A stretch of DNA of 64,000 bases from Squalus acanthias (GCA_030390025.1 CM059431.1:146260001-146324000); one strand, 5' to 3'; shown: positions 27,040 through 58,987, counted from the first letter of the stretch. Numbers and translations are program-made. Notes: generated from the sequence alone by a model not told the origin.

Positions 27040-27194
27040 AGTGGCCGTGCCCTCCCGCGCAGGCGCAGTGCCGCTCCCTTGCTCTCTCACGCAAGCGCAG
27101 TGCCGTTCCCTTGCTCATCCGGGGATGTGCAGTGGGCGGGGTTTGCTGTGTGCCGGGCCGGGATGCGCGGGCCGGTGTGTGAGTGACGGTAAGA
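27040..27194 (+). promoter_or_regulatory. CpG-rich promoter-like element with a probable short non-coding first exon
   Basis: Local CpG/GC enrichment against AT-rich sequence on its left. NRF1-like GCGCAGGCGCA (27057-27067) and a duplicate ACGCAAGCGCA, GC box GGGCGGGG (27134-27141), and donors GTGAGT (27179) and ACG|GTAAGA (27189). Confidence 0.6.
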
Positions 27195-30100
27195 AACAGG
27201 ATGGTTGACCGGGTTACAGGGGCCGCGCTCTGTGACTGTGGGAACTCGGCTCCATTCAGCACACGGCCTGACAGCGCGGCTGCTCAGCCCAGAGTTTATA
27301 TCACAGCGAGGGAGGGAGGGGCTTCACAGTGTCACAGACCCGGTTTGCGACTCGGCACACTCAGTCCTCCAGTGAGATCAGACAGTGTGAAACCCGGGGA
27401 ATATGGGCCCAGTGAGATCTGACTGTGGGTAACGCGGGGAGGATGGGGAATGTCATATCTGACTGTGTGTAACCCGGGGAGGATGGGCCAAGTGTGATCA
27501 GACAGTTTTTAACCCGGGGAGAATGGGCCAAGTGATATCAGTCAGTGTGTAACCCGCGGAAGAGGGGCCCAGTGAGATCAGAGAGTGTGTAACCCGGGGA
27601 TGATGGGCCCAGTGAGATCAGACAGTTTGTAACAAGGGGAGAATGGGCCAAGTGATATCAGACAGTTTCAAAACCGGGGAGGATGGGCCCAGTAAGATAA
27701 GGCAGTGTGTAACCCGAGGGGGATAGGTCGTGTGAGAGCAGACAGTGTGCAACCTGGGGAGGGTGGACCTTTGACAGCAGACAGTGTGTGTTCCGGGGAG
27801 GATGGTTCCTGTAAGAGCAGACAGTGTGTAACCCAGGGAGGATGGGCCCAGTGGAGATCACGAAATTTTAACCAGCGGAGGTTGAGTCCAATGAGATCAG
27901 ACAGTGAATATCCCGGGAAAGAATTGCCCAGTGAGATCAGACAGTGTGTAACCGCGGCAGGATGGGTCCAGTGAGATCAGACATTGTGTAACCCGGGGAG
28001 GATGGGCCCAGTGAGATCAAACAGTGTTTAACCCGGGGAGGATGGGCAGAGTGAGATCAAACAGTCTTTAACCCGGGGAGGATGGGCCCAGTGAGGTCAG
28101 ACAGTGTGTAACCCGGGGAGGATGGGCCAAGTGAGATCAGACTCAGGGTAACCCGGGAAGGATGGGCCCAGTGAGGGCAGAAAGTGTGTATCCGGGGGAG
28201 GTTCGGTCCAGTGATATCAGACAGTGTGTAACCCGGAGTAAATGGGCCCAGAGAGATCACACAATTTGTAACTCGGGGAGTTTTGGTCCTGTGAGTGCAG
28301 ACAGTGTGTAACCCGGGGAGGATGGGCCCAGTGAGATCAGACAGTGTGTAACCCGGGGAGGATGGGCCCAGTGAGATCAGACAGTGTGTAACCCGTGAGG
28401 ATGGGCCCAGTGAGAGCAAATAGTTTGTAAACTGGGGAGGATGGATCCAGTGAGAGGAGACAGTTTGTAATCCTGTGAGGATTGGCCCAGTGAGATGAGA
28501 CAGTGTGTAAGCCGGGGAGAATGGGCCCAGTGAGATCAGACAGTTGCAACCCGGAGATGATGTGCCCAGTGAAATCAGACAGTGAGTAACACGGGGAGGA
28601 AAGACCCAGTGAGATCAGACAGTGTGCATCCTGAGAGGATGGCCCAGTGAGATCGGACAGTTTGTTACCAGGGGAGGATGGGCACAGTGAGATCAGACAG
28701 AGTGTAACCCGGGGTGGATGGGCCCAGTGAGTTCAGACAGTGTGTGATACGGGATGGATGGGCCCAGTGAGATCAGACAGTGTGTAACTCAGGGAGGACG
28801 GGCCTAGTGAGATCAGACAGTGTGTAACCCCGGGAGGATGGGCCCAAATCAGACAGTGTGTAACCCGGGGAGGATGGGCCCAGTGAGATCAGACAGTGTG
28901 TAACCCGGGGAGGATGGGCCCAGTGAGTTCAGAGAGAGGGAACCTAGGGGAAGATGGGCCCAGTAAGTTCCGACAGTGTGCAACCTGGGAGGATGGCCCA
29001 GTGAGATCAGACAGCGTGTAACCCGGGGTGGATGGCCCCTGTTAGATCAGACAGTGCGTAACAAGGGGAGGATGGGCCCAGTGAGAACACACAATTTGTA
29101 AACCGGAGAGTTTTGGTCCTGTGAGTGCAGACAGTGTGTAACCCGGGGAGGACGTTCCCAGTGGGATCAGACAGTGTGTAACCCGGGAAGGAAGGGCCCT
29201 GTGAGATTAGTCAGTGTGTAACACGGGGAGGATGGGCCTATTGAGATCAGACAGTGTGTAACCCGGGGAGGATGTGCCCAGTGAGATCAGACAGTGTGTA
29301 ACCCGGGGAGGATGGGCCCATTGAGAGCAGACAGTGTATAACCCGGGGAGGAATGGCCCATTGAGATCAGACAGTGGGTAACCCGGGGAGGATGGCCCTA
29401 ATTAGATCAGACAATGCGTAACCCGGGAGGATGGGCCCAGTTATAGCAGACATTGGATAACCCGGGGAGGATGGGCCCAGTGAGAGCAGACAGAGTGTAA
29501 TCCTGGGAGGATGGGCACAGTGAGATCACAAAGTGTGTAACCTGGGGAGGATGGATCCAGTGAGAGGAGAAAGTGTTTAATCCTGTGAGGATTGGCAACG
29601 TGAGATGAGACATGGTGTAAGCCAGGGACGATGGGCCCAGTGAGATCAGTCAGTATGTAACCGACGAAGATGGGCCCAGTGAGATCATAGAACGTGTAAC
29701 ACGGGGAGGATGGGCCAAGTGAGATCAGACAGTGTGTAACCCGGGGAGGAAGGGCCCATTGAGATCAGACAGTGTGCAACCTGGGAGGATGGCCCAGTAA
29801 GATTGGACAGGGTCTTACCAGGGGAGGATGGGCCCAGTGAGATCAGACAGTGTGTAACCCGGGTAGGAATGGCCGAGTGAGATCAGACAGTGTTTAGCTC
29901 GGGGAGGATGGGTCCCGTGAGATCAGACTGTGTGTAACCCGGGGGCATGGGCCCAGTCAGATCAGTCAGTCTGTAACCCGGGGAGGTTGGGTCTTGTGAG
30001 AGCAGACAGTGTGTAACCCGGTGTGGGTGGGCCCAGTTAGATCAGAGAGTGTGTAACCCGGGGAGAATGGGCCAAATGATATCAGTCAGTGTTTAACCCA

Positions 30101-30469
30101 GGGAGGATGGGTCCTGTGAGAGCATAAATTGTGTAACCCGGGGAGGATGGGCTATGTGAGATCAGACATTGTGTGTCATGGAATGGATGGGCCCAGTGAG
30201 ATCAGACAGTGTGTAACCCGGGGAGGATGGGCCAAGTGAGATCAGACAGTGTGTAACCCGGGGAAGTTGGGCAAGTGAGATCAGACAGTGTGCAAAATGG
30301 GGTGGATGGGCCCAGTGATATCAGACAGTGTATATTCCTGGAAGGATGAGCCCAGTGAGATCTGAGAGTGGGAAACTAGGCGAGGAGCGGCCCAGTGAGC
30401 TCCGACAGTGGGCAAACAGGGAGGATGGCCCAGTGAGATTAGACAGTGTGTAACCCGGGGAGGATGGGC

Positions 30470-33400
30470 CCAGTGAAATCAGACAGTGTGGAACCCAGGA
30501 GGATGGGCCCAGTGAGATCAGTCAGTCTGTAACCCGGCGAGATTGGGTCCTGTGAGAGCAGAAAGTGTGTAACCTGGTGAGGATGGGCCCAGTGAGATCA
30601 GGCAGTGTGTAACTCGGGGAGAATGGGTGCTGTGTAAGAAGATATTGTGTAACTTGGGGAGAACGGGCACAGTGAGATCAGTCAGTGTTTAACCCGGGGA
30701 GAATGGGACAAGTGATATCAGTCAGTGTGTCACCCGGGGCGGGTCGGACCAGTGAGATCACACAATTTTTAATCCGGGGAGGTTGAGTCCAGTGAGATCA
30801 GACAGCGTATATCTCGGGAAGGAAGGTCCCAGTGAGATCAGATAGTGTATAACCCGGGGAGGATGAGTCATGTGAGAGCAGACAGTATGTGATACGGGAT
30901 GGATGGGCCCAGTGAGATCAGACAGTGTGTAACCCGGGTGGGATGGGCCCAGTGAGATCAGACAGTGTATAATCGGGGAAGGATGTGATAAGTGAGATCA
31001 GACAGTGTTTAACCCTGGGAGGATGGATCCAGTGAGATCAGACAGTGTGTAACCCGGGGAGGATGGGCCCAGTGAGATCAGACAGTGTGTAACCCGGGGA
31101 GGAAGAGCCCAGTGAGCTCAGAGAATGTGTAACCCCGGGAGGATGGGCCCAATGAAATCAAACATTGTTTAGCCCTGCGAAGTTGGGCCCAATGAGATCA
31201 GACAGTGTGTAACATGGGGTGGATGGGCCCAGTAATATCAGAGAGTGGGAAACTATGGGAGGATGGGGCCAGTGAGTTCCGACAGTGTGCAACCTGGGAG
31301 GAATGCCCAGTGAGATCAGACAGTTTGTAACCCGGGGAGGATGGGCACAGTGAAATCAGACAGTGTGTAACCTGGGGAGGATGGGCCCCGTGAGATCAGA
31401 CACTGTGTAACCCGGGATGGATGGCCCCAGTGTGATCACACAGTGTGTAACCCGGGAAGGATGGGTCCAGTGAAATCAGACAGTGGCCAACCCGTGGAGG
31501 ATGGGCCCAGTGAGATCAGACAGTGTGTAACCCGAGGAAGATGGGCCCAGTGAGATCAGACTGTGTGCCACCTGAGAGGATGGGCCCAGAGGGATCAGAC
31601 AGTGTGTAACTCAGGGAGGATGGGCTAAGTGAGATCAGACAGTGTGCAACATGGGAGGATGGGCCCAGTGAGATCAGACAGTGTGCAACCTGAGAGGATG
31701 GGCCCAGAGGGATCAGACAGTGTGTAACTCGGGGAGGATGGGCCCAGTGAGATCAGACAGTGTGCAACCTGCGAGGATGGGCCCAGAGGGATCAGACAGT
31801 GTGTAACTCGGGGAGGATGGGCCCAATGAGATCAGACAGTGTGCAACATGGGAGGATGGGCCCAGTGAAATCAGACAGTGTTTAGCTCGGGGAGGATGTG
31901 CCCAGTGAAATCAGACTGTGTGCAACCTGGGAGGATGGGCCCAGTGAGATCAGACAGTGTGTAACTCGGGGAGGATGGGCCCAGTGAGATCAGACAGTGT
32001 GTGGCCCGGGGAGGATGGGCCCAGTGAGATCAGAGAGTGTGTAATCCGGGGAGGAGGGGCCCAATGAGACCAGACAGTGTGTAACCCGGGGAGGATGGGC
32101 CCAGTGATTTCTGACAGTGTGTAACCCGGGGAGGATGGGCGCAGTGAGATCAGGCAGTGTGTAACCCGGGGAGGATGGGCCCAGTGATATCAGACAGTGT
32201 TTAACCCGGGGAGGATGGGCCCAATGAGATCAGACGATGTTTAACCCTGGGAAGTTGGGCCCAGTGAGATCAGACAGTGGGTAACCCGTGGAGGAAGAGC
32301 CCAGTGAGATCAGAGAATGTGTAACCCCGGGAGGATGGGCCCAATGAGATCAAACAGTGTTTAACCCTGGGAAGTTGGGCCCAATGAGATCAGACAGTGT
32401 GTAACCCGGGGAGGATGGGCCCAGTGAGATCAGAAAGTGTGTAATTCGGGGAGGATGGGCCCAGTGAGATCAGACAGTGTGTAAGATGGGGTGGATGGGC
32501 CCAGTGAGTTCTAACAGTGTTTCACCCGGGGAGGATGTGTACTGTGTGAGCAGACATTATCTAACCCGGGGAGGACGGGCCCAGTGAGATCAGACAGTGT
32601 TTAACCCGGGGAGGATGGGCCCAGTGACATCAGGCAGTGTGTAACCCTGGGAAGTTGGGGCAAGTGAGATCAGATAGTGTGCAACATGTCCCAGTGATAT
32701 CAGACAGTGTATAACCCGGGAAGGATGTGTCCAGTGAGATCAGAGAGTGGGAAACTACGGGAGGATGGGGCAAGTGAGATCAGTCAGTCTGTAACCCATG
32801 GAGGTTGGGTCCTGTGAGAGCAGACAGTGTGTAACCTGGGTAGGATGGGCCCAGTGAGATCAGACAGTGTGTTACCCGGGGAGGATGGGTCCTGAGTGAG
32901 AAGACATTGTGTAACCAGTGGAGGAGGGTCCTGTGAGAGCAGACAGTGTGTAACCCGGGGAGGATGGGCTCAGAGAGATCACAAAATTTTAACCCGGGGA
33001 GGATGGGCCCAGTGAGATCAGACAGTGTATATCCCGGGCAGGAAGGGCCCAGTGAGATCAGAGAGTGTGCAACCGAGGGAGGATGGGTCCTGTGAGATCA
33101 GACAGTGTGTAACCCGGGGAGGATGGTCCAAGTGAGATCAGACTTAGTGTAAGTCGGGAGGATGGGCCCAGTGAGGGCAGAACGTGTGTAACTGGGGGAG
33201 GTTCGGTCCAGTGATATCAGAGAGTGTGTATTGCAAAGAAAATGGGCCGAGTGAGATCACACAATTTGTAACCGGGGAATTTTGGTCCTGTGAGTGCAGA
33301 CAGTGTGTAACCCGGGGAGGACGTTCCCAGTGAGATCAGACAGTGTGTAACCCGGGGAGGATGGGCCCAGTGAGATCAGACAGTGTATAACCCGGGGAGG

Positions 33401-36400
33401 ATGGCCCCAGTTAGTTCACACAGTTTGTAACGCGGGGTGGTTGGGTCCAGTGAGATCAGACATTGGATAACCCGGGGTGGATGGGCCCAGTGAGATCAGA
33501 CAGTGTGTAACCCTGGGAGGATGGGCCCAGTGAGATCAGACAGTGTGTAACTCGGGGAGGATGGGCCCAGTGAGAGAAGACAGTGTGTAACCCGGGGAGG
33601 ATGGGCCCAGTGAGATCAGACAGTGTGTAACCCGGGGAGGATGGGCCCAGTGAGAGAAGACAGTGTGTAACCCGGGGAGGATGGGCCCAGTGAGATCAGA
33701 CAGTGTGTAACTCGGGGAGGATGGGCCCAGTGAGATCAGACGTTGGATAATCCGAGGAGGATGGGCCCAGTGAGAGCAGACAGTGTGTAATCCTGGGAGG
33801 ATGGCCTTAGTGAAAGCAAACAGTTTGTAACCTGGGGAGGATGGATCCAGTGAGAGGAGAAAGTGTGTAATCCTGTGAGGATTGGCACAGTGAGATGAGA
33901 CAGTGTGCAATCCGAGGACGATGGGCACAGTGAGATCAGACACTGTGCAACCGGAGGAAGATGGGCACATTGAAATCATATAATGTGTAACACGGGGAGG
34001 ATGGGCCCAGTGAGATCAGACAGTTGCAACCCGGATAGGATGTGCCCAGTGAGATCAGACAGTGTGTAGCCCGGGGAGGATGTGTATTGTGTGAGCAGAA
34101 ATTATCTAACCCGGGGAGGACGGGCCCAGTGAGATCAGATAGTGTTTAACACGGGGATGATGGGCCCAGTGAGGTCACAGAATTTTTTAACCCTGGTAGG
34201 ATGGGTCCTGTGAGAACATATCGTATGAACCCTAGGTAGGATGGGCCCAGTGTGATCAGACAGTGTGTAACCCGGAGAGGATGGGACCAGTGACATCAGG
34301 CAGTGTGTAACCGTGGGAAGTTGGGCTAAGTGAGATCAGACAGTGTGCAACATGGGCCCAGTGATATCAGACAGTGTATAACCCGGGAAGGATGTGCCCA
34401 GTGCGATCAGACAGTGGGAAACTACGGGAGGATGGGGCAAGTGAGATCAGTCAGTCTGTAACCCGTGGAGGTTGGGTCCTGTGAGAGCAGACAGTGTGTA
34501 ACCTGGATAGGATGGGCCTAGTGAGATCAGACAGTATGTTACCCGGGGAGGATGGGTCCTGAGTGAGAAGACAATGTGTAACCAGGGGAGGATGGTCCCA
34601 GTGAGATCAGACAGTGTGTTACCGGGGGAGGATGGGTCCTGAGTGAGAAGACATTGTGTAACCCGGGGAGGATGGGCCCAGTGAGATGACACAGTGTGTA
34701 AACCGGGGAGAATGGGCCAAGTGATATCAGACAGTGTATAACCCGGGAAGGATGTGCCCAGTGAGATCAGGGAGTGGGAAACTACGGGAGGATGGGGCAA
34801 GTGAGATCAGTCAGTCTGTAACCCGTGTAGGTTGGGTCCTGTGAGAGCAGACAGTGTGTAACCTGGGGAGGATGGGCTCAGTGAGATCAGACACTGTGTT
34901 ACCCGGGGAGGATGGGTCCTGAGTGAGAAGACATTGTGTAACCAGGGGAGGATGGGCCCAGTGAGATCAGACAGTGTTTTACCGGGGGAGGATGGGTCCT
35001 GAGTGAGAAGACATTGTGTAACCCGGGGTTGATGGGCCCAGTGAGATCAGACAGTGTGTAACCCGGGGAGAATGGGCCAAGTGATATCAGTCAGTGTATA
35101 ACCCGGGGCGGATGGGAACAGTGAGATCACACAATTTTTAACCCGGGGAGGTTGAGTCCAGTGTGATCAGATAGTGTGTAATCCAGGGAGGATGGGTCCT
35201 GTGAGATCAGACAGTTTGCAACGCGGGATGGATGGGCCCAGTGAGATGAGACAGTGAGTAACCCGGGGAGGATGGGCCCAGTGAGATCAGACAGTGTGTA
35301 AACCGGGGAGGATGGGCCCAGTGAGATCAGACAGTGTGTAACCCGGGGAGAATGGGCCAAGTGAGATCAGAGAGTGCGTAACGCCGGGAGGATGGGCCCA
35401 GTGAGATCACACTGCGTGCAAACCTGGGAGGATGGATCCTGTGAGAGCAGACAGTGTGTAACCCGGGGAGGATGGGCTCAGAGAGTTCACAAAATTTTAA
35501 CCCGGGGAGGATGGGCCCAGTGGGATCAGCCAGTGTATATCCCGGGCAGGAAGGGCCCAGTGAGATCAGAGAGTGTGCAACCCAGGGAGGATGGTCCCAG
35601 TGAGATCAGACTGTGTGTAACCCGTGGAGAATTGGCCAAGTGAGATCAGACAGTGTGTAAGTCGGGAGGATGGGGCCCAGTGAGGGCAGAAAGTGTGTAA
35701 CTGGGGGAGGTTCGGTCCAGTGATATCAGACAGTGTGTATTCCAAACAAAATGGGCCGAGTGAGATCACAGAATTTGTAACCGGGGAATTTTGGTCCTGT
35801 GAGTGCAGACAGTGTGTAACCTGGGGAGGATGGGCCCAGTGAGATCAGACAGTGTGTAACCTGGGGAGGATGGGCCCAGTGAGATCAGACAGTGTGTAAC
35901 CCGGGGAGGATGGGCGAATTGAGATCAGTCAGTGTGTAACCCGGGATGGATGGGCCCAGTGAGATCAGACAGTGTATAACCCGGGGGAGGATGGGCCCAG
36001 TGAGATCAGACAGTGGTTAACCCGGGGAGGATGGCCCCAGTTAGTTCACACAGTTTGTAACGCGGGGTGGTTGGGTCCAGTGAGATCAGACATTGGATAA
36101 CCCGGGGAGGATGGGCCCAGTGAGATCAGACAGTGTGTAACCCGGGGAGGATGGGCCCAGTGAGATCAGACGTTGGATAATCCGTGGAGGATGGGCCCAG
36201 TGAGAGCAGACAGTGTGTAATCCTGGGAGGATGGATCCAGTGAGAGGAGAAAGCGTGTAATCCTGTGAGGATTGGCACAGTGAGATGAGACAGTGTGCAA
36301 GCCGAGAACGATGGGCACAGTGAGATCAGACACTGTGTAATCGGAGGAAGATGGGCACATTGAGATCATATAATGTGTAACACGGGGAGGATGGGCCCAG

Positions 36401-39400
36401 TGAGATCAGACAGTTGCAACCCGGATAGGATGTACCCAGTGAGATCAGACAGTGTGTAGCCCGGGGAGGATGTGCCTAGTGAGTTCAGAGAGTGTGCAAT
36501 CCGGGGAGGATGGGCCCAGTGAGATCAGACAGTGTGGAACCCAGGAGGATGGGCCCAGTGAGATCAGTCAGTCTGTAACCCGGCGAGATTGGGTCCTGTG
36601 AGAGCAGAAAGTGTGTAACCTGGTGAGGATGGGCCCAGTGAGATCAGGCAGTGTGTAACTCGGGGAGAATGGGTGCTGTGTAAGAAGATATTGTGTAACT
36701 TGGGGAGAACGGGCACAGTGAGATCAGTCAGTGTTTAACCCGGGGAGAATGGGACAAGTGATATCAGTCAGTGTGTCACCCGGGGCGGGTCGGACCAGTG
36801 AGATCACACAATTTTTAATCCGGGGAGGTTGAGTCCAGTGAGATCAGACAGCGTATATCTCGGGAAGGAAGGTCCCAGTGAGATCAGATAGTGTATAACC
36901 CGGGGAGGATGAGTCATGTGAGAGCAGACAGTATGTGATACGGGATGGATGGGCCCAGTGAGATCAGACAGTGTGTAAGCCGGGTGGGATGGGCCCAGTG
37001 AGATCAGACAGTGTATAATCGGGGAAGGATGTGATAAGTGAGATCAGACAGTGTTTAACCCTGGGAGGATGGATCCAGTGAGATCAGACAGTGTGTAACC
37101 CGGGGAGGATGGGCCCAGTGAGATCAGACAGTGTGTAACCCGGGGAGGAAGAGCCCAGTGAGCTCAGAGAATGTGTAACCCCGGGAGGATGGGCCCAATG
37201 AAATCAAACATTGTTTAGCCCTGCGAAGTTGGGCCCAATGAGATCAGACAGTGTGTAACATGGGGTGGATGGGCCCAGTAATATCAGAGAGTGGGAAACT
37301 ATGGGAGGATGGGGCCAGTGAGTTCCGACAGTGTGCAACCTGGGAGGAATGCCCAGTGAGATCAGACAGTTTGTAACCCGGGGAGGATGGGCACAGTGAA
37401 ATCAGACAGTGTGTAACCTGGGGAGGATGGGCCCCGTGAGATCAGACACTGTGTAACCCGGGATGGATGGCCCCAGTGTGATCACACAGTGTGTAACCCG
37501 GGAAGGATGGGTCCAGTGAAATCAGACAGTGGCCAACCCGTGGAGGATGGGCCCAGTGAGATCAGACAGTGTGTAACCCGAGGAAGATGGGCCCAGTGAG
37601 ATCAGACTGTGTGCCACCTGAGAGGATGGGCCCAGAGGGATCAGACAGTGTGTAACTCAGGGAGGATGGGCCCAGTGAGATCAGACAGTGTGCAACATGG
37701 GAGGATGGGCCCAGTGAGATCAGACAGTGTGCAACCTGAGAGGATGGGCCCAGAGGGATCAGACAGTGTGTAACTCGGGGAGGATGGGCCCAGTGAGATC
37801 AGACAGTGTGCAACCTGCGAGGATGGGCCCAGAGGGATCAGACAGTGTGTAACTCGGGGAGGATGGGCCCAATGAGATCAGACAGTGTGCAACATGGGAG
37901 GATGGGCCCAGTGAAATCAGACAGTGTTTAGCTCGGGGAGGATGTGCCCAGTGAAATCAGACTGTGTGCAACCTGGGAGGATGGGCCCAGTGAGATCAGA
38001 CAGTGTGTAACTCGGGGAGGATGGGCCCAGTGAGATCAGACAGTGTGTGGCCCGGGGAGGATGGGCCCAGTGAGATCAGAGAGTGTGTAATCCGGGGAGG
38101 AGGGGCCCAATGAGACCAGACAGTGTGTAACCCGGGGAGGATGGGCCCAGTGATTTCTGACAGTGTGTAACCCGGGGAGGATGGGCGCAGTGAGATCAGG
38201 CAGTGTGTAACCCGGGGAGGATGGGCCCAGTGATATCAGACAGTGTTTAACCCGGGGAGGATGGGCCCAATGAGATCAGACGATGTTTAACCCTGGGAAG
38301 TTGGGCCCAGTGAGATCAGACAGTGGGTAACCCGTGGAGGAAGAGCCCAGTGAGATCAGAGAATGTGTAACCCCGGGAGGATGGGCCCAATGAGATCAAA
38401 CAGTGTTTAACCCTGGGAAGTTGGGCCCAATGAGATCAGACAGTGTGTAACCCGGGGAGGATGGGCCCAGTGAGATCAGAAAGTGTGTAATTCGGGGAGG
38501 ATGGGCCCAGTGAGATCAGACAGTGTGTAAGATGGGGTGGATGGGCCCAGTGAGTTCTAACAGTGTTTCACCCGGGGAGGATGTGTACTGTGTGAGCAGA
38601 CATTATCTAACCCGGGGAGGACGGGCACAGTGAGATCAGACAGTGTTTAACCCGGGGAGGATGGGCCCAGTGACATCAGGCAGTGTGTAACCCTGGGAAG
38701 TTGGGGCAAGTGAGATCAGATAGTGTGCAACATGTCCCAGTGATATCAGACAGTGTATAACCCGGGAAGGATGTGTCCAGTGAGATCAGAGAGTGGGAAA
38801 CTACGGGAGGATGGGGCAAGTGAGATCAGTCAGTCTGTAACCCATGGAGGTTGGGTCCTGTGAGAGCAGACAGTGTGTAACCTGGGTAGGATGGGCCCAG
38901 TGAGATCAGACAGTGTGTTACCCGGGGAGGATGGGTCCTGAGTGAGAAGACATTGTGTAACCAGTGGAGGAGGGTCCTGTGAGAGCAGACAGTGTGTAAC
39001 CCGGGGAGGATGGGCTCAGAGAGATCACAAAATTTCAACCCGGGGAGGATGGGCCCAGTGAGATCAGACAGTGTATATCCCGGGCAGGAAGGGCCCAGTG
39101 AGATCAGAGAGTGTGCAACCGAGGGAGGATGGGTCCAGTGAGATCAGACAGTGTGTAACCCGGGGAGGATGGTCCAAGTGAGATCAGACTTAGTGTAAGT
39201 CGGGAGGATGGGCCCAGTGAGGGCAGAACGTGTGTAACTGGGGGAGGTTCGGTCCAGTGATATCAGAGAGTGTGTATTGCAAAGAAAATGGGCCGAGTGA
39301 GATCACACAATTTGTAACCGGGGAATTTTGGTCCTGTGAGTGCAGACAGTGTGTAACCCGGGGAGGACGTTCCCAGTGAGATCAGACAGTGTGTAACCCG

Positions 39401-46800: not shown

Positions 46801-47083
46801 TGTGTAACCCGGGGAGGATGGCCAAGTGAGACAGTGTGTCACCCGGGTTAGATGGGCCCAGTGAGATCAGACAGTGTGTAACCCGGGCAGGATGGGCCCA
46901 GTGAGATCAGATAATATGTAATCCGGGGCGGTTGGGTCCAGTGAGATCAGTCAGTGTATATCCTGGGGAGGTTGGGCCCAGTGAGATCAGACAGTGTGTA
47001 AGGCGGGATGGATGGGCCCAGTGAGATCAGACAGTGTGTAACCCGAGCGGATGGTTCCTGTAAGAGCAGAGAGTGTGTAACCC

Positions 47084-47114
47084 AGGGTAAAAGGGTTAGG
47101 GTTAGAGTTAGGGT
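47084..47114 (+). repeat. Short interstitial telomere-like (TTAGGG) tract, copy 1
   Basis: AGGGTAAAAGGGTTAGGGTTAGAGTTAGGGT replaces part of one monomer. Confidence 0.8.
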
Positions 47115-49759
47115 GAGAGCAGACAGTGTGTAACTCGGGGAGGATGGGCCCAGTGAGATGAGACAGTGTGTGACACGGGATGGATGGGCCCAGTGAGATG
47201 AGACAGTGTGTAACCCGAGCGGATGGTTCCTGTAAGAGCAGAGAGTGTGTAACCCGGGGAGGATGGGCCAAGTGAGATCAGACAGTTTGCAACATAGGGT
47301 GGATGGGCCAAGTGATATCAGACAGTGTATAACCCAGGAAGGATGTGCCCAGTGAGATCAGAGAGTGGGAAACCTGGGGAGGATGGGCCCAGTGAGTTCC
47401 GACAGTGTGCAACCTGGGAGGATGGACCAGTGAGATCAGACAGTGTGTAACCCGGGGAGGATGGGCTGAGTGAGATCAGACAATGTGCAACCCGGGGAGG
47501 TTGGGTCCTATGAGATCAGACAGTGTGTAACCCGGGGAGGATGGGCCCAGTTTGATCAGACAGTGTCTAACCCGGGGAGGATGGGCCCAGTGAGATCAGA
47601 CAGTGTGTACCCCGGCGAGGTTGGGCCCAGTGAGATCAGACAGTGTGTAACCCGGGGAGGAACACCCCAGTGAGATCAGACAGTGTGTAACCCGGGGAGG
47701 ATGAGCCCAGTGAAATCAGACACTGTGTAACCCGGGATGGATGGGCCCAGTGTGATCAGACAGTGTGTAACCCGAGGAGAATGTGCCCAGTGAGATAAGA
47801 CAGTGAGTAACCCCGGGAGGATGGGCTCAATGAGATCTGACAGAGGTTAACCCTGGGAAGTTGGGCTCAGTGAGATCAGACAGTGTGTAACATGGGGTGG
47901 ATGGGCCCAGTGAGATCAGACAGTGCGAAACTAGGGGAGGATGGGGACAGTGAGTTCCGACAGTGTGCAACCCGGGATGGATGGGCCAATGTGATCAGAC
48001 AATGTGTAACCCGACGAGAAGGGCTCCTGTGAGAGCAGACAGTGTATAACCCGGAGAGGACGGGGCCAGTGAGATCAGACAGTGTGGAACCCGGGGAGAA
48101 TGGGCCAAGTGATATCAGTCAGTGAGTAACCCGGGGAAGATGGATCCAGTGACAGCAGACAGTGTCTAACCCGGGGAGGATGGGCCCAGAGAGAGCAGAC
48201 AGTGTGTATCCCGGGGAGGATGGGCCCAGAGAGAGCAGACAGTGTGTATCCCGGGGAGGATGGGCGCAGTGAGATCAGACAGTGTGTAATCCGGGGAGGA
48301 TGGGCACAGTGAGATCAGACAGTGTGTAACCCGGGGAGGATGGGCGCAGTGAGATCAGACAGTGTGTAACCCGGGGAGGATGGGCACAGTGAGATCAGAC
48401 AGTGTGTAAGCCTGAGACGATGGGCCCAGTGAGATCACACAGTGTATAAACCTGGGAAGGATGTGCCCAGTGAGATCAGAGAGTGGGAAACTAGGGGAGG
48501 ATGGGCCCAGTGAGTTCCGACACTGTGCAAACTGGGAGGATGGTCCAGTGAGATCAGACAGTGTATAACCCGGGGAGGATGGGCCCATTGAGGTAAGACG
48601 TGTGTAAGCCTGAGACGATGGGCCCAGTGAGACCAGACAGTGTATATCCCGAGAGGAAGGGCCCAGTGAGATCAGACAGTGTGGAACCCGTGGAGGATGG
48701 GTCCTGTGAGAGCAGACAGTGTGTAACCCGGGGAGAATGGGCCAAGTGAGATCAGACAGTGTGTAACACAGGGAGGATGGATCCTTTGTAAGAAGACATT
48801 GTGTAACCCGGGGAGGATGGGTCCAGTGAGATCAGACAGTGTGTAACCCGGGGCGGTTGGGTCCAGTGAGATCAGACAGTGTGTAACCCGGGGAGGATGG
48901 TTCCTGTGAGAGCAGACAGTGTGTAACCCGGGGAGGATGGGCCCAGTGAGATCAGACAGTGTGCAATCCGGGGAGGAAGAGCCCAGTGAGATCAGACAGT
49001 GTGTAACCCTGGGAAGTTGGGCTCAGTGATATCAGACAGTGTTTAACCCTGGGAGGTTGGGCCCAGTGTGATCAGACAGCGTGTAACCCGGGGAGGATGG
49101 GCCCAGTGAGATCAGAGAGTGGCAATCTAGAGGATGATGGGACCAGTGAGTTCCGACAGTGAGCAACCTGGGAGGATGGCCCAGTAAGATCAGACAGTGT
49201 GTATCCCAAACAAAATGGGCCCAGTGAGATCACACAATTTGTAACCCGGGAGTTTTGGACCTGTGAGTGCAGACAGTGTGTAACCCGGGGAGGATGGGCC
49301 CAGTGAGATCAGACAGTGGGTAACCCGGGGAGGATGGCCCAGTGAGATCCGACAGTGTATAACCGGGGAGGATGGCCCCAGTTAGATTTCACACAGTTTG
49401 TAAATCGGGGAGGTTGGGTCCAGTGAGATCAGACATTGGATAACCCGGGGAGGATAAGCCCAGTGAGGTCACACATTGTGCAATCCTGTGAGGATTGGCA
49501 CAGTGAGATCAGACAGTGTGTAACCCGGGGAGGATGGCCAAGTGAGACAGTGTGTCACCCGGGTTAGATGGGCCCAGTGAGATCAGACAGTGTGTAACCC
49601 GGGCAGGATGGGCCCAGTGAGATCAGATAATATGTAATCCGGGGCGGTTGGGTCCAGTGAGATCAGTCAGTGTATATCCTGGGGAGGTTGGGCCCAGTGA
49701 GATCAGACAGTGTGTAACCCGAGCGGATGGTTCCTGTAAGAGCAGAGAGTGTGTAACCC

Positions 49760-49790
49760 AGGGTAAAAGGGTTAGGGTTAGAGTTAGGGT
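49760..49790 (+). repeat. Short interstitial telomere-like tract, copy 2
   Basis: Identical to 47084-47114, 2676 bp downstream. Confidence 0.8.
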
Positions 49791-52435
49791 GAGAGCAGAC
49801 AGTGTGTAACTCGGGGAGGATGGGCCCAGTGAGATGAGACAGTGTGTGACACGGGATGGATGGGCCCAGTGAGATGAGACAGTGTGTAACCCGAGCGGAT
49901 GGTTCCTGTAAGAGCAGAGAGTGTGTAACCCGGGGAGGATGGGCCAAGTGAGATCAGACAGTTTGCAACATAGGGTGGATGGGCCAAGTGATATCAGACA
50001 GTGTATAACCCAGGAAGGATGTGCCCAGTGAGATCAGAGAGTGGGAAACCTGGGGAGGATGGGCCCAGTGAGTTCCGACAGTGTGCAACCTGGGAGGATG
50101 GACCAGTGAGATCAGACAGTGTGTAACCCGGGGAGGATGGGCTGAGTGAGATCAGACAATGTGCAACCCGGGGAGGTTGGGTCCTATGAGATCAGACAGT
50201 GTGTAACCCGGGGAGGATGGGCCCAGTTTGATCAGACAGTGTCTAACCCGGGGAGGATGGGCCCAGTGAGATCAGACAGTGTGTACCCCGGGGAGGTTGG
50301 GCCCAGTGAGATCAGACAGTGTGTAACCCGGGGAGGAACACCCCAGTGAGATCAGACAGTGTGTAACCCGGGGAGGATGAGCCCAGTGAAATCAGACACT
50401 GTGTAACCCGGGATGGATGGGCCCAGTGTGATCAGACAGTGTGTAACCCGAGGAGAATGTGCCCAGTGAGATAAGACAGTGAGTAACCCCGGGAGGATGG
50501 GCTCAATGAGATCTGACAGAGGTTAACCCTGGGAAGTTGGGCTCAGTGAGATCAGACAGTGTGTAACATGGGGTGGATGGGCCCAGTGAGATCAGACAGT
50601 GCGAAACTAGGGGAGGATGGGGACAGTGAGTTCCGACAGTGTGCAACCCGGGATGGATGGGCCAATGTGATCAGACAATGTGTAACCCGACGAGAAGGGC
50701 TCCTGTGAGAGCAGACAGTGTATAACCCGGAGAGGACGGGGCCAGTGAGATCAGACAGTGTGGAACCCGGGGAGAATGGGCCAAGTGATATCAGTCAGTG
50801 AGTAACCCGGGGAAGATGGATCCAGTGACAGCAGACAGTGTCTAACCCGGGGAGGATGGGCCCAGAGAGAGCAGACAGTGTGTATCCCGGGGAGGATGGG
50901 CCCAGAGAGAGCAGACAGTGTGTATCCCGGGGAGGATGGGCGCAGTGAGATCAGACAGTGTGTAATCCGGGGAGGATGGGCACAGTGAGATCAGACAGTG
51001 TGTAACCCGGGGAGGATGGGCGCAGTGAGATCAGACAGTGTGTAACCCGGGGAGGATGGGCACAGTGAGATCAGACAGTGTGTAAGCCTGAGACGATGGG
51101 CCCAGTGAGATCACACAGTGTATAAACCTGGGAAGGATGTGCCCAGTGAGATCAGAGAGTGGGAAACTAGGGGAGGATGGGCCCAGTGAGTTCCGACACT
51201 GTGCAAACTGGGAGGATGGTCCAGTGAGATCAGACAGTGTATAACCCGGGGAGGATGGGCCCATTGAGGTAAGACGTGTGTAAGCCTGAGACGATGGGCC
51301 CAGTGAGACCAGACAGTGTATATCCCGAGAGGAAGGGCCCAGTGAGATCAGACAGTGTGGAACCCGTGGAGGATGGGTCCTGTGAGAGCAGACAGTGTGT
51401 AACCTGGGGAGAATGGGCCAAGTGAGATCAGACAGTGTGTAACACAGGGAGGATGGATCCTTTGTAAGAAGACATTGTGTAACCCGGGGAGGATGGGTCC
51501 AGTGAGATCAGACAGTGTGTAACCCGGGGCGGTTGGGTCCAGTGAGATCAGACAGTGTGTAACCCGGGGAGGATGGTTCCTGTGAGAGCAGACAGTGTGT
51601 AACCCGGGGAGGATGGGCCCAGTGAGATCAGACAGTGTGCAATCCGGGGAGGAAGAGCCCAGTGAGATCAGACAGTGTGTAACCCTGGGAAGTTGGGCTC
51701 AGTGATATCAGACAGTGTTTAACCCTGGGAGGTTGGGCCCAGTGTGATCAGACAGCGTGTAACCCGGGGAGGATGGGCCCAGTGAGATCAGAGAGTGGCA
51801 ATCTAGAGGATGATGGGACCAGTGAGTTCCGACAGTGAGCAACCTGGGAGGATGGCCCAGTAAGATCAGACAGTGTGTATCCCAAACAAAATGGGCCCAG
51901 TGAGATCACACAATTTGTAACCCGGGAGTTTTGGACCTGTGAGTGCAGACAGTGTGTAACCCGGGGAGGATGGGCCCAGTGAGATCAGACAGTGGGTAAC
52001 CCGGGGAGGATGGCCCAGTGAGATCCGACAGTGTGTAACCGGGGAGGATGGCCCCAGTTAGATTTCACACAGTTTGTAAATCGGGGAGGTTGGGTCCAGT
52101 GAGATCAGACATTGGATAACCCGGGGAGGATAAGCCCAGTGAGGTCACACATTGTGCAATCCTGTGAGGATTGGCACAGTGAGATCAGACAGTGTGTAAC
52201 CCGGGGAGGATGGCCAAGTGAGACAGTGTGTCACCCGGGTTAGATGGGCCCAGTGAGATCAGACAGTGTGTAACCCGGGCAGGATGGGCCCAGTGAGATC
52301 AGATAATATGTAATCCGGGGCGGTTGGGTCCAGTGAGATCAGTCAGTGTATATCCTGGGGAGGTTGGGCCCAGTGAGATCAGACAGTGTGTAACCCGAGC
52401 GGATGGTTCCTGTAAGAGCAGAGAGTGTGTAACCC

Positions 52436-52466
52436 AGGGTAAAAGGGTTAGGGTTAGAGTTAGGGT
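52436..52466 (+). repeat. Short interstitial telomere-like tract, copy 3
   Basis: Identical to 49760-49790, 2676 bp downstream. Confidence 0.8.
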
Positions 52467-54385
52467 GAGAGCAGACAGTGTGTAACTCGGGGAGGATGGG
52501 CCCAGTGAGATGAGACAGTGTGTGACACGGGATGGATGGGCCCAGTGAGATGAGACAGTGTGTAACCCGAGCGGATGGTTCCTGTAAGAGCAGAGAGTGT
52601 GTAACCCGGGGAGGATGGGCCAAGTGAGATCAGACAGTTTGCAACATAGGGTGGATGGGCCAAGTGATATCAGACAGTGTATAACCCAGGAAGGATGTGC
52701 CCAGTGAGATCAGAGAGTGGGAAACCTGGGGAGGATGGGCCCAGTGAGTTCCGACAGTGTGCAACCTGGGAGGATGGACCAGTGAGATCAGACAGTGTGT
52801 AACCCGGGGAGGATGGGCTGAGTGAGATCAGACAATGTGCAACCCGGGGAGGTTGGGTCCTATGAGATCAGACAGTGTGTAACCCGGGGAGGATGGGCCC
52901 AGTGTGATCAGACAGTGTCTAACCCGGGGAGGATGGGCCCAGTGAGATCAGACAGAGTGTAACCCGGGGAGGATGGGCCCAGTGAGATCAGACAGTGTGT
53001 ACCCCGGGGAGGTTGGGCCCAGTGAGATCAGACAGTGTGTAACCCGGGGAGGAACACCCCAGTGAGATCAGACAGTGTGTAACCCGGGGAGGATGAGCCC
53101 AGTGAAATCAGACACTGTGTAACCCGGGATGGATGGGCCCAGTGTGATCAGACAGTGTGTAACCCGAGGAGAATGTGCCCAGTGAGATAAGACAGTGAGT
53201 AACCCCGGGAGGATGGGCTCAATGAGATCTGACAGAGGTTAACCCTGGGAAGTTGGGCTCAGTGAGATCAGACAGTGTGTAACATGGGGTGGATGGGCCC
53301 AGTGAGATCAGACAGTGCGAAACTAGGGGAGGTTGGGGACAGTGAGTTCCGACAGTGTGCAACCCGGGATGGATGGGCCAATGTGATCAGACAATGTGTA
53401 ACCCGACGAGAAGGGCTCCTGTGAGAGCAGACAGTGTATAACCCGGAGAGGACGGGGCCAGTGAGATCAGACAGTGTGGAACCCGGGGAGAATGGGCCAA
53501 GTGATATCAGTCAGTGAGTAACCCGGGGAAGATGGATCCAGTGACAGCAGACAGTGTCTAACCCGGGGAGGATGGGCCCAGAGAGAGCAGACAGTGTGTA
53601 TCCCGGGGAGGATGGGCGCAGTGAGATCAGACAGTGTGTAAGCCTGAGACGATGGGCCCAGTGAGATCACACAGTGTATAAACCTGGGAAGGATGTGCCC
53701 AGTGAGATCAGAGAGTGGGAAACTAGGGGAGGATGGGCCCAGTGAGTTCCGACACTGTGCAAACTGGGAGGATGGTCCAGTGAGATCAGACAGTGTATAA
53801 CCCGGGGAGGATGGGCCCATTGAGGTAAGACGTGTGTAAGCCTGAGACGATGGGCCCAGTGAGACCAGACAGTGTATATCCCGAGAGGAAGGGCCCAGTG
53901 AGATCAGACAGTGTGGAACCCGTGGAGGATGGGTCCTGTGAGAGCAGACAGTGTGTAACCTGGGGAGAATGGGCCAAGTGAGATCAGACAGTGTGTAACA
54001 CAGGGAGGATGGATCCTTTGTAAGAAGACATTGTGTAACCCGGGGAGGATGGGTCCAGTGAGATCAGACAGTGTGTAACCCGGGGCGGTTGGGTCCAGTG
54101 AGATCAGACAGTGTGTAACCCGGGGAGGATGGGCCCAGTGAGATCAGACAGTGTGCAATCCGGGGAGGAAGAGCCCAGTGAGATCAGACAGTGTGTAACC
54201 CTGGGAAGTTGGGCTCAGTGATATCAGACAGTGTGTAACATGGGGTGGATGGGCCCGGTGAGAACAGACAGTGTGTAACCCTGGGAAGTTGGGCTCAGTG
54301 AGATCAGACAGTGTGTAACATAGTTGGATGGGCCCAGTGAGATCAGACAGTGTGTAGCATGGGGAGGATGTGCCCAATGAGATCA

Positions 54386-54797
54386 TGATGCGGAGATGCC
54401 GGTTTTGGACTGGGGTGGACAAAAATGAGAAGTCGCACAACACCAGGTTATAGTCTAACAGATTTATTTAAAATTACAAGCTTTTGGAGCTGTTGCCCCT
54501 TCGTCAGGTAAAGGTACAATGAGGGAATCTACAGTATTATCAGTATATAAACACAGAAAGCAATTTGTCTGCAGAGATACAATCTTTCAGGGAGGCATTA
54601 CATCAAAGACACACCAGAGCACAGCCAAGACAATGGGATGGGTCACAGGGGGTCCAACGTGACAAATCCTGCCGTCTGCAGTTGATCTTTTAACCTTTTT
54701 TTTTGTTTGTTTGTTTTTCGTGTTTTTTTGTGTTTTTTGTTAAAACTGGAAAGACAGACAACGATGTCGAGTCACGTTCTGTGTGATATACACAGGT
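54386..54797 (-). mobile_element. ~410-bp insertion in the satellite; its left part resembles a Penelope-like element terminus
   Basis: Non-satellite sequence. The minus strand reads a hammerhead-like motif, then AATAAA (54463-54468), then ...TTGTCCACCCCAGTCCAAAACCGGCATCTCCGCATCA, an arrangement recalled from Penelope-like termini. A T-rich tract lies at about 54686-54741. The family assignment is from recognition, not a search. Confidence 0.65.
54474..54511 (-). ncRNA. Degenerate minimal type I hammerhead ribozyme motif
   Basis: Minus strand UUAC-CUGACGA-A-GGGGC-AACA-GCUCC-AAAA-GCUU-GUAA: stem I UUAC/GUAA, stem II GGGGC/GCUCC, core CUGACGA intact, GAAA changed to AAAA. Confidence 0.6.
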
Positions 54798-57779
54798 AGT
54801 GTATAGCCCGGGAAGGATGTGCCCAGTGAGATCAGAAAGTGGGAAACTAGGGGAGGATGGGGCCAGTGAGTTCCGACATTGTGCAACCTGGGAGGATGGC
54901 CCAGTGATATCAGACAGTGTATAACCCTGGAAGGATGTTACCAGTGAGATCAGAGAGTGGGAATATAGGGGAGGATGGGGCCAGTGAGTTCCGACAGTGT
55001 GTAAAAGGCGAAGGATGGGCCCATTGAGATCAGACAATATGTAACCCGGGGCGATTGGGTCCAGTGAGATCAGTCAGTGTATATCATGGGGAGGTAGGGC
55101 ACAGTGAGATCAGACAGTGTGCAACCCGGGGAAGATGGCTCCAGTGAGAGCAGACAGTGTCTAACCCGGGATGGATGGGCCCAGTGAGAGCAGACAGTGT
55201 GTATCCCGGGGAGGATGGGCGCAGTGAGATCAGCCAGTGCGTAACCCGGGTAGGTTGGTTCCAGTGAGATTGGACAGTGCACGCCTAGGAGGATGGGCTC
55301 AATGAGATCACACAGTTTGTAAGCCACGGAGGTTGGGTCCAGTGAGAGCAGACAGTGTGTAACCCGGGGAGGATGGGCCCAGTGAGATCAGACAGTGTGT
55401 AACCCGGGGAGGATGGGCCCAGTGAGATCACACAATGTGTAACCCGGTGACGTTGGGTTCAGTGAGATCAGACAGTGGATAACCCGGGGAGGATGGGCCC
55501 AGTGAGATCGGACAGTGTGTAATCCTGGAAGGATGGGGCCAGTGAGAGCAGACAGTGTGTAACCCGGGAGGATGGGACCAGTGAAATCAGAGATTGTGTA
55601 ACCCGGGAGGATGGGCCCAGTGTGATCAGACAGTATGTATGCCGTGGAGGATAGCCAGTGATATCACACAGTTTGTAACCCGGGGAGGTTGGGTCCAGTG
55701 AGGTGAGACAGTGTGTAACCCGGGGAGGATGGGTCCAGTGAGATCAGACAGTGTGTAACCCGGGGAAGATGGATCCAATCAGATCAAACAGTGTGGAACC
55801 CGGGGAGGATGTGCCCAGTGCGATCAGACAGTGTGTAACTCGAGGAGAATAGGTCCTGTGAGATCAGACAGTGTGTAACCCTGGGAGGATGCGCTCAGTG
55901 AGAGCAAGCAGTTTTTAATCCTGGGAGGATGGGCCCAGTGATATCAGACAGTGTGTAACCCGGGGAGGATTGGCACAGTGAGATCAGAGAGAGGGTAACC
56001 AGGGCGGAATGGCCCAGTGAGATCAGACAGTGTGTAACCCAGGGAAGATGGGCCCAGTGAGGTCAGACCCTGTGTAAGCCCGAGAGGATGGGCTCAGTGA
56101 GATCAGACAGTTTGTAACCCGGGGAGGATGGGCCCAGTAAGATCAGACAGTGTGTAACCCGGGGAGGATGAGCTCAGTGAAATCAGACAGTGGATAACCC
56201 GGGGAGGATGGGTCCAGTGAGAACGGACAGTGGATAACCCGTGGAGGATGGGTCCAGTGAGAGCAGACAGTGTGTAAACCTAGGAGGATGGGACCAGTTA
56301 GAGCACACAATTTGTAACTCGGGGAGGTTGGGTCCAGTGAGATCAGACAGTGAATATCCCGAGAGGATGGGCCCAGTGAGAGCAGACAGTGTGTATTCCT
56401 GGGAGGATGGTCCCAGTGAGAGTAGGAAGTGTCTATCCGGGGGAGGATCGGTACAGTGATATCAGACAGTGTGTAAGCCAGGGAGGATGGCCCCAGTGAG
56501 ATCACACCGTTTGTAACCCCGGCAGGTTGGTTTTAGTGAGATCGAACAGTGGATAACCCGGGGAGAATGGGCCCAGTGAGATCAGACAGTGTTTAACCCG
56601 GGGAGGATGTTCCCAGTGTAATCAGACATTGAGCAAGCCGGGAGGTTGGGCCCAGTGAGAGCAGCAAGTGTGTATCCCGCGGAGGAAGAACCCATTGCGT
56701 TCAGACAGTGTGAAATTCGGGGATGTTCGGTCCAGTGAAATCAGACAGTGTTTAACCCGTGGAGGATGGGTCTTTGGAGAGCAGGCAGCGTGTGACCCGG
56801 GGAGGACGGGACCAGTGATACCAGACAGTTTGTAACTTTGGGAGGATGGGCCCAGTGAGATCAGACAGTGTGTAACCCGGAGAGGATGGGCCCAGTGAGA
56901 TCACACAGTTTGTAACCCGGGATGTTGGGTCCAGTGAGATCAGACAGTGTGTAATCCTGGGAGGACGGGCCTAGTGAGAGCAAACAGTTTGTAACTCGGG
57001 GAGGATTGGCACAGTGAGATGAGACAGTGTGTAACCCGGGGAGAATGGGACTAGTGACATTAGATAGTGTTTAACCCGGGAAGTTGGGCCCAGTGAGATC
57101 AGACAGTGTGTAAGCCGGGGAGGATGGGCCCAGTGAGGTCAGACAGTGTGTAAGCCGGGGAGGATGTGCCCAGTGTGATCAGACAGTGTGTAACCCGGGG
57201 TGGCTAGGTCCTGTGATAGCAGACAGTGTGTAACCCGGGGAGGAGTATCCCAGTGAGATCAGACAGTGTGTTACCCGGGAAAGATGGGCCCAGTGAGATC
57301 AAACTTTTTGTAAGCCGAGAGGATGGGCCCAGTGAGAGCAGAAAGTGTGTATCCGGGGGAGGTTCGGTCCCGTGATATCAGACAGTGGGTAACCCGGGGA
57401 GGTAGGGCCCAATGAGATCACACAATTTGTAACCCGGGGAGGATGGGTCCTGTGACAGCAGGCAGTTTCAAAAACGGGGAGGATGATCCAAGTGAGATCA
57501 GACAGTGTGTGCCCCGGGATGGATGGGCCCAGTGAAATCAGACAGTGTGTAACCCGGGGAGGATTGGCCTAGTGAGATGAGACAGTGTGTAAACCGGGGA
57601 GGACGGGCCCAGTGAGATCACACAGTTTGTAACCCGGGGAGGTTGCTTCCTGGGAATTCAGACAGTGTGTAATCCTGGGAGGATGGGCCCAGTGAAATCA
57701 GACATTGTGTAAATCGGGATGGATTTGCCCAGAGAGATCAGACAGTCTGTAACCCGGGGAAGATGGGTCGTGTTTTAAC

Positions 57780-58285
57780 ATTTTCAATGTAGAAAGTTAT
57801 TGTGACGTAGAATTGGGTAAATGGGTGCGGTTAAGTTACAGATGCAGATGGTTTAGGACGATCAGATTTTCAGAGGTGACACGTTGATTTCTAATAAAGT
57901 GATTAGTTTGCCGATTTTTAATTTACTTTACAGCCAGAACTGACGGTGCAGTCAGTAAATATGCAATATCAGGACTTGTGGTGTAAAATCTGTTGCTGGA
58001 ATCGCAGCTGCAAAGTTAGAAAAACTGGCTAAATGTTCAGGGCTAATGTTCTTAACTAAACTCAGAATGCGTGATGTTGGTTTTGTTATTTCCGTTTCAG
58101 TTATTCTGCCTGAGTGATTTCCTCTATTGCCAGGGTAACAATCTGTCAGATCTCAGTATAAGAGACGTTGACACCAATTTATGTCCGGAAGACGGCTAGT
58201 CATTCAGTGTAAACTCCATTCTTTGTGTTCGGGAGTCCAGTATTAGGAACATCTTCTGGATATTTGCGATATTATTATAAAGAAG
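57780..58285 (+). repeat. Low-copy duplicated segment, copy 2 (abuts the end of the 40-bp array; cut by a CR1 insertion)
   Basis: Homologous to 26140-26695. Homology resumes after the LINE at 58952 (AATTTCTATACCAGTAA vs AATTGTCTACACCAGTAA at about 26693). Confidence 0.9.
58074..58134 (+). CDS. Candidate signal-peptide (leader) coding exon portion, MLVLLFPFQLFCLSDFLYCQ plus 1 nt
   Basis: ATG at 58074, 20 codons with a hydrophobic core, ending in phase 1 at CAGG|GTAACA. Upstream acceptor TTTACTTTACAG| ends at 57933. Out-of-frame upstream ATGs and a mediocre donor weaken the call. Confidence 0.3.
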
Positions 58286-58951
58286 CATAGAAACATAGAA
58301 GATAGGAGCAGGAGTAGGCCATTCGACCCCACGAGCCTTCTCCGCCATTTAATGAGATCATGGCTGATCATCCAAATTCAGTACCCTGTCCCTGCTTTCT
58401 CCCCATATCCCTTGATCCCTTTAGCCTTAAGAAATATATCGATCTCCTTCTTGAATATATTTAATGAATTGGCCTCAACTGCCTTCTGTGGTAGAGAATT
58501 CCACAGGTTCACCACTCTCTGGGTGAAGAAATTCCTCCTCATCTCAGTCCTAAATGGCTTACCCCTTATCCTTAGACTGTGACCTCTGGTTCTGGACTCC
58601 CCCGCCATCGGGAACATCCTTCCTGCATCTAGTCTGTCTCGTCATGTTAGAATTTTATAAGTTTCAATGAGATCCCCTCTCATTCTTCTAAACCTAGCGA
58701 ATATAAGCCTAATCGACCCAATCTCTCTTCATACGTCATTCCTTCCATCCCAGGTATCAGTCTAGTAAATCTTCGCTGCACTCCCTCCATGGCAAGAACA
58801 TCCTTCCTCAGATAAGGCGACCAGAACTGCACACAATACTCAAGGTGTGGTCTCACTAAGGCCCTGTACAACTGCAGCAAGACATCCTTGTTCCTGTACT
58901 CGAAAGACATCCTTGCTCCTGTACTCGAAGACATCCTTGCTCCTGTACTCG
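58286..58951 (-). mobile_element. 5'-truncated CR1-clade LINE (3' end of ORF2 plus tail)
   Basis: Peptides LLQLYRALVRPHLEYCVQFWSPYLRKD (58680-58934) and RTRGHSLRIRG...NFFTQRVVNLWNSLP (58378-58617), frameshifted. The 8-bp tail repeat CATAGAAACATAGAA is at 58286. Confidence 0.95.
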
Positions 58952-58987
58952 AATTTCTATACCAGTAACATTATACTATAATAGCAT

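Follow-up and report, generated by a model that had tools for sequence, protein, structure and literature searches.

We analyzed a window of 64,000 nt on one strand of the Squalus acanthias genome (GCA_030390025.1 CM059431.1:146260001-146324000), in which a 61-bp tandem array is followed by 2.3 kb that are largely unique, then by a 40-bp tandem array and by 6.2 kb dominated by LINE fragments. The 61-bp array (1–25079, 411 copies) runs off the window and is distinct from the 40-bp unit; alignments between the two units were not above shuffles on the plus strand (92/500 as good) and were marginal on the minus strand (16/500). Derivation of the 61-bp unit from its own right flank was unsupported, as 210 of 500 shuffles scored as well. 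Between the two arrays lie a stretch that we take to be SINE-like (about 25200–25520), one copy of a duplicated sequence that we call segment E, and a CpG-rich element. The second copy of segment E borders the right side of the 40-bp array, and beyond it are nested LINE fragments (58275–64000), with reverse transcriptase and endonuclease pieces, among which no extracellular-domain exon was found.

The CpG-rich element (27040–27188, plus strand) is promoter-like in composition and motifs and is a candidate non-coding first exon. The G+C content of 27040–27190 is 70% and the observed/expected ratio of CpG is 0.87. The element contains an NRF1-like site at 27057, within a 32-nt direct repeat, and a GC box at 27134. 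The original prediction had described such an element ending in ACG and followed directly by GTAAGA, with the G at 27189, and this was borne out letter for letter. The candidate donor (27189–27194, plus strand) has 7/9 matches to U1 and is located ~180 nt before the array. The same prediction had proposed that the 30,745 nt between this donor and an acceptor at 57933 form a first intron made up almost entirely of 40-bp satellite. As a description of the interval this is accurate, with the satellite accounting for 97.5% of 27189–57933. A length of 30 kb is unremarkable for a vertebrate intron.

The 40-bp minisatellite array (27369–57767, plus strand) consists of 763 units with a period of 40. 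The 596 full-length units have a mean identity of 88% to the consensus, and this value is even along the array. At a larger scale, 21,166 of its 30,399 nt fall in blocks of at least 500 nt that are each 99.7–100% identical to another block, with offsets between the near-identical blocks of 6046, 2676 and 1351 nt, among others. Only 17,914 nt of the array are free of an exact 100-mer seen earlier in it, and ~12.5 of its 30.4 kb repeat earlier sequence. The near-identical duplicates suggest recent change in the array, with assembly error as the alternative: either an older array of ~18 kb was enlarged lately by kilobase-scale duplication or it was over-expanded in the one assembly in which it is represented. 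The array is also interrupted by a non-satellite insertion of ~415 bp at 54385–54800, whose start we take to resemble a common shark repeat.

The composition of the array differs markedly between its strands. No AATAAA or ATTAAA is present on its plus strand, and there are four acceptor-like sites on the plus strand versus 170 on the minus strand. This composition is permissive for a plus-strand intron, yet it stems from one unit repeated many times, so that its strand polarity counts as one event and not as 763. GT sites with 7/9 matches to U1 are numerous within the array (n = 111).

Segment E had been overlooked as a duplication in the original prediction. The downstream copy (57788–58273, plus strand) is low-copy family sequence and is probably a non-coding exon or UTR. 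Its portion 57834–58262 aligns to the upstream copy (26220–26672, plus strand) with 81.6% identity over 348 nt and 76% over a further 67 nt. The upstream copy is situated 370 nt upstream of the CpG-rich element and has a 54-nt deletion, which takes out the AG equivalent to that at 57792. It retains eight letters of the flank at 57772–57779, so this flank predates the duplication of E. An E copy upstream of the promoter is something that a simple two-exon gene does not account for.

Comparison of the two copies revealed 79% identity before the acceptor that had been proposed at 57933, 81% in the proposed UTR, 90% in the proposed open reading frame and 81% in the proposed second intron. This pattern indicates that the homology ignores the proposed exon borders. 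Coding constraint across E was rejected, as the 57 substitutions between the copies have no bias with regard to codon position (22/19/16). E also lacks the usual marks of a transposable element. There are no direct or inverted repeats in 57700–58400, and at most seven contigs per run share a variant (among the pieces listed), whereas depth reaches 10^5 in the LINE tail. A snoRNA or hairpin was rejected: E had no Rfam matches at gathering score, a weak C/D-box match in both copies reached ~21 bits where 52 are required, and the folding z-scores of all four E-core strands were ordinary (−0.42 to 0.60).

The core of E at 58074–58134 is 90% identical between the copies, compared to ~80% in its flanks, and yet it is frameshifted, as in a conserved regulatory element. 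This core holds ISRE-, ETS- and X-box-like motifs, of which the ISRE-like motif lies at 58089–58098 and overlaps a 20-codon open reading frame. For a possible MHC-type promoter module in E, the spacing and the CCAAT orientation differ from the usual arrangement, and the X-box-like pattern matched the upstream copy only. The conserved but frameshifted core and its motifs favor a reading in which the array is intergenic or untranscribed and belongs to a decaying, segmentally duplicated unit with the order E, promoter, array, E. In such a unit, the CpG-rich promoter would be dead or would fire leftwards, and E would be what is left of a regulatory sequence or UTR, carried along by duplication. 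The presence of E on both sides of the promoter and array argues for this reading, as do the absence of coding exons between the E copies or in 57770–64000 and the fact that donors as strong as that at 27189 are common. Against it, the strongest donor 3' of the CpG-rich element points into the array, and segment E is covered in relatives by contigs with a sharp common left edge beside an AG (see below). On balance we consider an intergenic or untranscribed array to be somewhat unlikely.

The 40-bp unit is related to E itself. In inverted orientation it matches the core of both E copies, with alignment scores of 36 and 32 for the reverse complement; the maxima in 300 shuffles of each were 28 and 22, and none of the 300 reached the observed score. 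The stretches concerned are 26534–26571 in the upstream copy (minus strand, best 24/28) and 58125–58160 in the downstream copy (minus strand, best 23/28), the latter of which holds a possible donor at 58135. When 28-mers of the array flanks were compared with the unit, 11 of 1352 resembled it and all were located in these two stretches. A direct match of the unit to either flank was not above chance (264/500 and 266/500 shuffles as good). This inverted likeness suggests that a short stretch of E-family sequence, duplicated in inverted orientation, was probably the origin of the unit. The reverse order, in which an old inverted monomer was fixed in E, is possible. A duplex between the best array unit and the E core has a computed energy of about −33 kcal/mol. 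Patterns of the E core and the unit had no matches in metagenome contigs or in viral contigs.

The original prediction had placed a leader exon at 57934–58134, coding for the signal peptide of a surface or secreted protein of Ig or SRCR type and spliced to a non-coding first exon across the array. Every signal that it named is present in the window. The acceptor motif TTTAATTTACTTTACAG ending at 57933 (57917–57933, plus strand) was found letter for letter, as were the ATG at 58074, the reading frame of 20 codons that it opens (58074–58134, plus strand), the phase-1 G and the GTAACA at 58135. The encoded peptide is hydrophobic, with a best 8-residue mean hydropathy of 2.69. It contains no basic residues, however, and four ATGs (57961, 58033, 58046 and 58067) precede 58074 within the proposed exon, which means that 58074 is not the first usable start of the proposed mRNA. 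The donor at 58135 matches the U1 consensus at 6/9 positions and lacks the G at +5. In addition, the combination of features is not rare by chance. When 57793–58273 was shuffled 1000 times with dinucleotides preserved, 106 of the shuffles contained a hydrophobic ATG-initiated reading frame of 12–30 codons that stopped in phase 1 at a GT[AG]A. The upstream copy of E has lost the AG that would correspond to the acceptor, and its reading frame, lengthened by one base, meets a stop after 13 codons.

Searches for a protein that such a leader might belong to were negative. No Ig or SRCR domain was detected in any of the 43 plus-strand reading frames of at least 45 aa in 57770–64000. Weak protein searches limited to longer proteins returned no likeness among 24 candidates for the minus-strand 66-aa frame of E, one candidate for the 47-aa frame containing the leader, or 28 candidates for a 62-codon frame over the CpG-rich element. 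A second search with the 66-aa frame gave two matches, both to unnamed repetitive proteins and without credible likeness. Pfam analysis of 39 of 60, 49 of 76 and 2 of 36 reading frames from three sets, together with one further frame, returned only LINE domains and sub-threshold noise. Overall, no parent gene or gene family was identified by protein and Pfam searches of the reading frames in the window.

Additional data on E came from contigs of related organisms. For 57800–58290, no set recorded as RNA was listed, a blank that carries no weight as evidence. Of six contig sets (shares at most 0.16), four were used, designated X1–X4, from two organisms; they are RNA by guess, their tissue of origin is not given, and they stem from relatives rather than from this locus. 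The contigs were aligned to 57775–58345, which includes the first 70 nt of the LINE tail, and contig assembly is a process that drops rare forms. In all four runs, contig cover of E was continuous through both 57933 and 58134, and several variants of E were represented, from which it follows that E is a low-copy family sequence. The counts given here concern the 32 pieces listed; a further 2,190 pieces, most of them by their depth from the LINE tail, and 149 loose ends come on top of these. Of the 32, eight extend across 57933 with no piece beginning at 57934, and 14 extend across 58134 with no piece ending at that position. Under a strict rule of 31 letters on each side, 57933 is spanned by one of the listed pieces and 58134 by none of them, the best having 64 and 30 letters. 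The listed pieces sum to the whole depth of the bins from 57915 to 57974 in all four runs, so there is no further contig that starts at 57934. In X4, the sole contig over 58095–58114 (depth 21.8) runs to 58156, which is 22 nt past the proposed donor; in the other runs, unlisted pieces could end at the donor. From the bin preceding this donor to the one following it, depth rose in three of the four runs and was halved in X2. The deepest contig of X1 carries 223 letters after 58164. No splice joints were listed among the contigs aligned to 57775–58345.

Some properties of these contigs do favor a leader exon. The closest contig in each run is free of gaps over all or most of the reading frame and keeps its frame, and the pyrimidine tract preceding 57933 is kept in the relatives. 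Conversely, the frame is broken in paralog contigs (+1, +1 and −2), including the deepest of them (depth 101.7), as it is in the upstream copy. Given these frameshifts, the passage of contigs across both proposed sites and the frequency of equivalent leaders in shuffled sequence, we found the assignment of 57934–58134 as a signal-peptide exon to be unsupported, and we regard that gene model as very improbable.

The contigs also bear on the possibility that a plus-strand intron is real and longer, extending from 27189 to an exon beyond 64000, with E being intronic and the contigs representing nascent RNA or paralogs. Consistent with this, the contigs pass every candidate site in E without a break, and the LINE debris at 58275–64000 is typical of introns. 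Their cover ends at 57788 in three runs and the positions 57775–57787 have none at all, unlike the uniform cover of nascent RNA, and a longer intron is therefore unlikely in our opinion.

The point at which cover ends draws attention to a different acceptor. There are four acceptor-like sites in 57768–58300 (57792, 57933, 58100 and 58133), and the first of these (57771–57792, plus strand) has an AG at 57791–57792 that is preceded by a pyrimidine-rich tract and lies 25 nt past the array. In X2, X3 and X4, which include both organisms, contigs diverge from the reference at 57788 and continue for 217, 176 and 15 unmatched letters, respectively. This gives weak reason to suggest that splicing may occur into 57793, in which case E would be one long non-coding exon. 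The contigs match five letters (57788–57792) inside the supposed intron, and their divergence point is 21 nt from the edge of the array. The edge at 57788 would be accounted for about as well if the genomes of the species simply differ here, and we rate splicing into 57793 as only slightly more likely than not.

Our tentatively preferred interpretation, in which our confidence is somewhat short of even, is that a minisatellite of local origin, lately re-expanded, occupies the first intron of a plus-strand transcript that starts in the CpG-rich element and has a non-coding second exon. The position of the array, between a CpG-rich element with a donor and a duplicated segment, is the observed starting point. 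We hypothesize that the promoter fires rightwards and that a short non-coding exon ends at 27188. The unit, with its observed similarity to the conserved core of E, would have originated as an inverted copy of that core, and kilobase-scale blocks of diverged units may then have multiplied, as by unequal exchange or replication slippage. An array whose plus strand lacks poly(A) signals and nearly lacks acceptors could have been tolerated within a transcript. Splicing would possibly join 27188 to 57793 rather than to 57934, a step for which the indications are weak, and E (57793 to at least 58273) would be a single non-coding or 5'-UTR exon common to several paralogs, with no signal-peptide exon. 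The length of the array would then be a by-product of its instability and is not a proven regulator. Of the original proposal of a plus-strand first intron behind a CpG promoter, what stays plausible is the intron itself, based on the composition of the array's plus strand and the divergence of contigs beside an AG close to its end; the acceptor at 57933 is contradicted by the relatives' contigs.

Repeat-filled introns have been described in several other systems. Hron et al. (2026, PMC12954441) described "sequence stuttering" of introns on the dot chromosomes of birds, for which their worked example spans 1.6–2.9 kb. The array in S. acanthias resembles the stuttering described there in having imperfect units of tens of bases that differ from their consensus by <20%, in having its own unit and reaching close to splice-like signals on either side (180 nt ahead of the array and 25 nt behind it), and in a probable local origin from neighboring unique sequence. 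It differs in that it is 30 kb long and in that its likely seed is inverted, where the avian arrays can start from the edge of a neighboring exon copied in direct orientation. Furthermore, avian stuttering as described is intronic and variable in length between individuals, whereas the shark array is known from one assembly and its intron is putative. According to the discussion of that paper, stuttering was not found in other vertebrates except gerbils; the words "shark" and "cartilaginous" are absent from its main text. The same source also mentions stuttering in intergenic DNA, which is compatible with the untranscribed alternative considered above.

A second comparison is the 30-bp VNTR in intron 3 of human CACNA1C, which, according to Song, Lowe and Kingsley (10.1101/311795), ranges from 3,000 to >30,000 bp and has grown from a single unit. 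Both arrays comprise hundreds of variable units of 30–40 bp and lie in or beside a transcription unit, which in the shark is a candidate. For CACNA1C, the gene that hosts the array is established, the array is known to be polymorphic in length and it has enhancer activity, whereas the shark array is known from its sequence alone; and the CACNA1C array takes up little of its large intron, whereas the shark array would make up 97.5% of its intron. Arrays of 30 kb within introns are thus already known from CACNA1C, and as it stands the one described here is a large minisatellite of an ordinary kind, set in a repeat-rich region of shark type. The Drosophila Y genes kl-3 and kl-5 have giant introns filled with satellite (PMC6508621, PMC11207136). 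The shared features are a long, mostly tandem-repeat intron (a candidate one here) and the idea that length affects transcription, but theirs are megabase introns in known coding genes, compared to a span of 30 kb in the shark. In sharks, the zebra shark genome paper (PMC10620051) describes the small chromosomes and chromosome ends as tandem-repeat-rich, and a high content of simple tandem repeats in GC-rich, gene-dense regions is general among sharks; its passages on these regions contain no mention of intron-filling arrays or of a 40-bp unit. Literature searches on shark intronic minisatellites and NLR expansions yielded no report of the 40-bp unit or of repeat-filled shark introns.

The array and the promoter-like element are real. 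In a more far-reaching interpretation, which we consider decidedly unlikely, intron stuttering of the avian kind also occurs in sharks and reaches a tenfold larger size there. A 30-kb first intron would have grown from an inverted copy of the conserved core of the next exon in the same transcript, and its ~760 units would be able to pair with that core in cis or with abundant paralog transcripts. Such pairing could hide the site at 58135, and the length of the array could act as an allele-level modifier of a possibly interferon-responsive family. If the intron is real, the locus would allow introns inflated by repeats to be studied cleanly in an animal other than a bird, and it would be one in which the repeat unit is tied to an inverted piece of the neighboring exon.

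The polarity of acceptor-like sites in the 61-bp tandem array (1-25079) was strongly skewed, with one such site on the + strand and 309 on the - strand, and it was the same as that in the 40-bp array (27369-57767). The 61-bp array was also observed to contain kilobase-scale duplicates of 99-100% identity, all of them within its first 10.4 kb. At its right edge, an AG at 25077-25078 formed the exact end point of the array and was separated by 21 nt from a donor at 25100 with eight of nine U1 matches. Judged on these sites, the 21 nt are a candidate micro-exon of an upstream + strand gene. The likeness between the 61-bp unit and the right flank, in the region 25060-25106, was not significant.

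Within the 40-bp array, an insertion at 54385-54800 carried a T-rich tract and an acceptor (AG at 54506-54507) immediately followed by GT. This order resembles a recursive splice site, although the arrangement is probably merely part of the inserted repeat. To the right of the array, LINE 3' fragments at 58351-58904 and 60982-61533 lay in opposite orientation, with 75% identity over 555 nt.

Repeats were also found in and around the promoter-like CpG element. A 32-nt direct repeat (81%) inside the element, at 27045-27108, carries the NRF1-like motif. The element itself lies between the arms, 791 nt apart, of a 34-nt inverted repeat (76%) formed by the core of the upstream copy of the low-copy segment E (26540-26573) and the first unit of the 40-bp array (27365-27398).

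At 26520 the upstream E copy carries the donor-like sequence GTGAGT. The equivalent position in the downstream copy, 58110, is C; in X1, one of four presumed RNA runs from two related organisms with contigs aligned to this copy, it was G in 120.5 of 144.9 of the depth. On the minus strand both copies weakly match the same C/D-box snoRNA, at 58150-58212 and 26560-26622, with scores of ~21 bits where the cut-off is 52. The two matches are not independent and are probably due to chance.

Contig depth dropped past ~58160 in all four runs. The deepest E-like contig, from X1 (368 nt, depth 101.7), matched only the core of E at 58071-58164, flanked by unmatched ends of 50 and 223 letters. This stretch may correspond to an exon of a well-expressed paralog, and would then identify the family.
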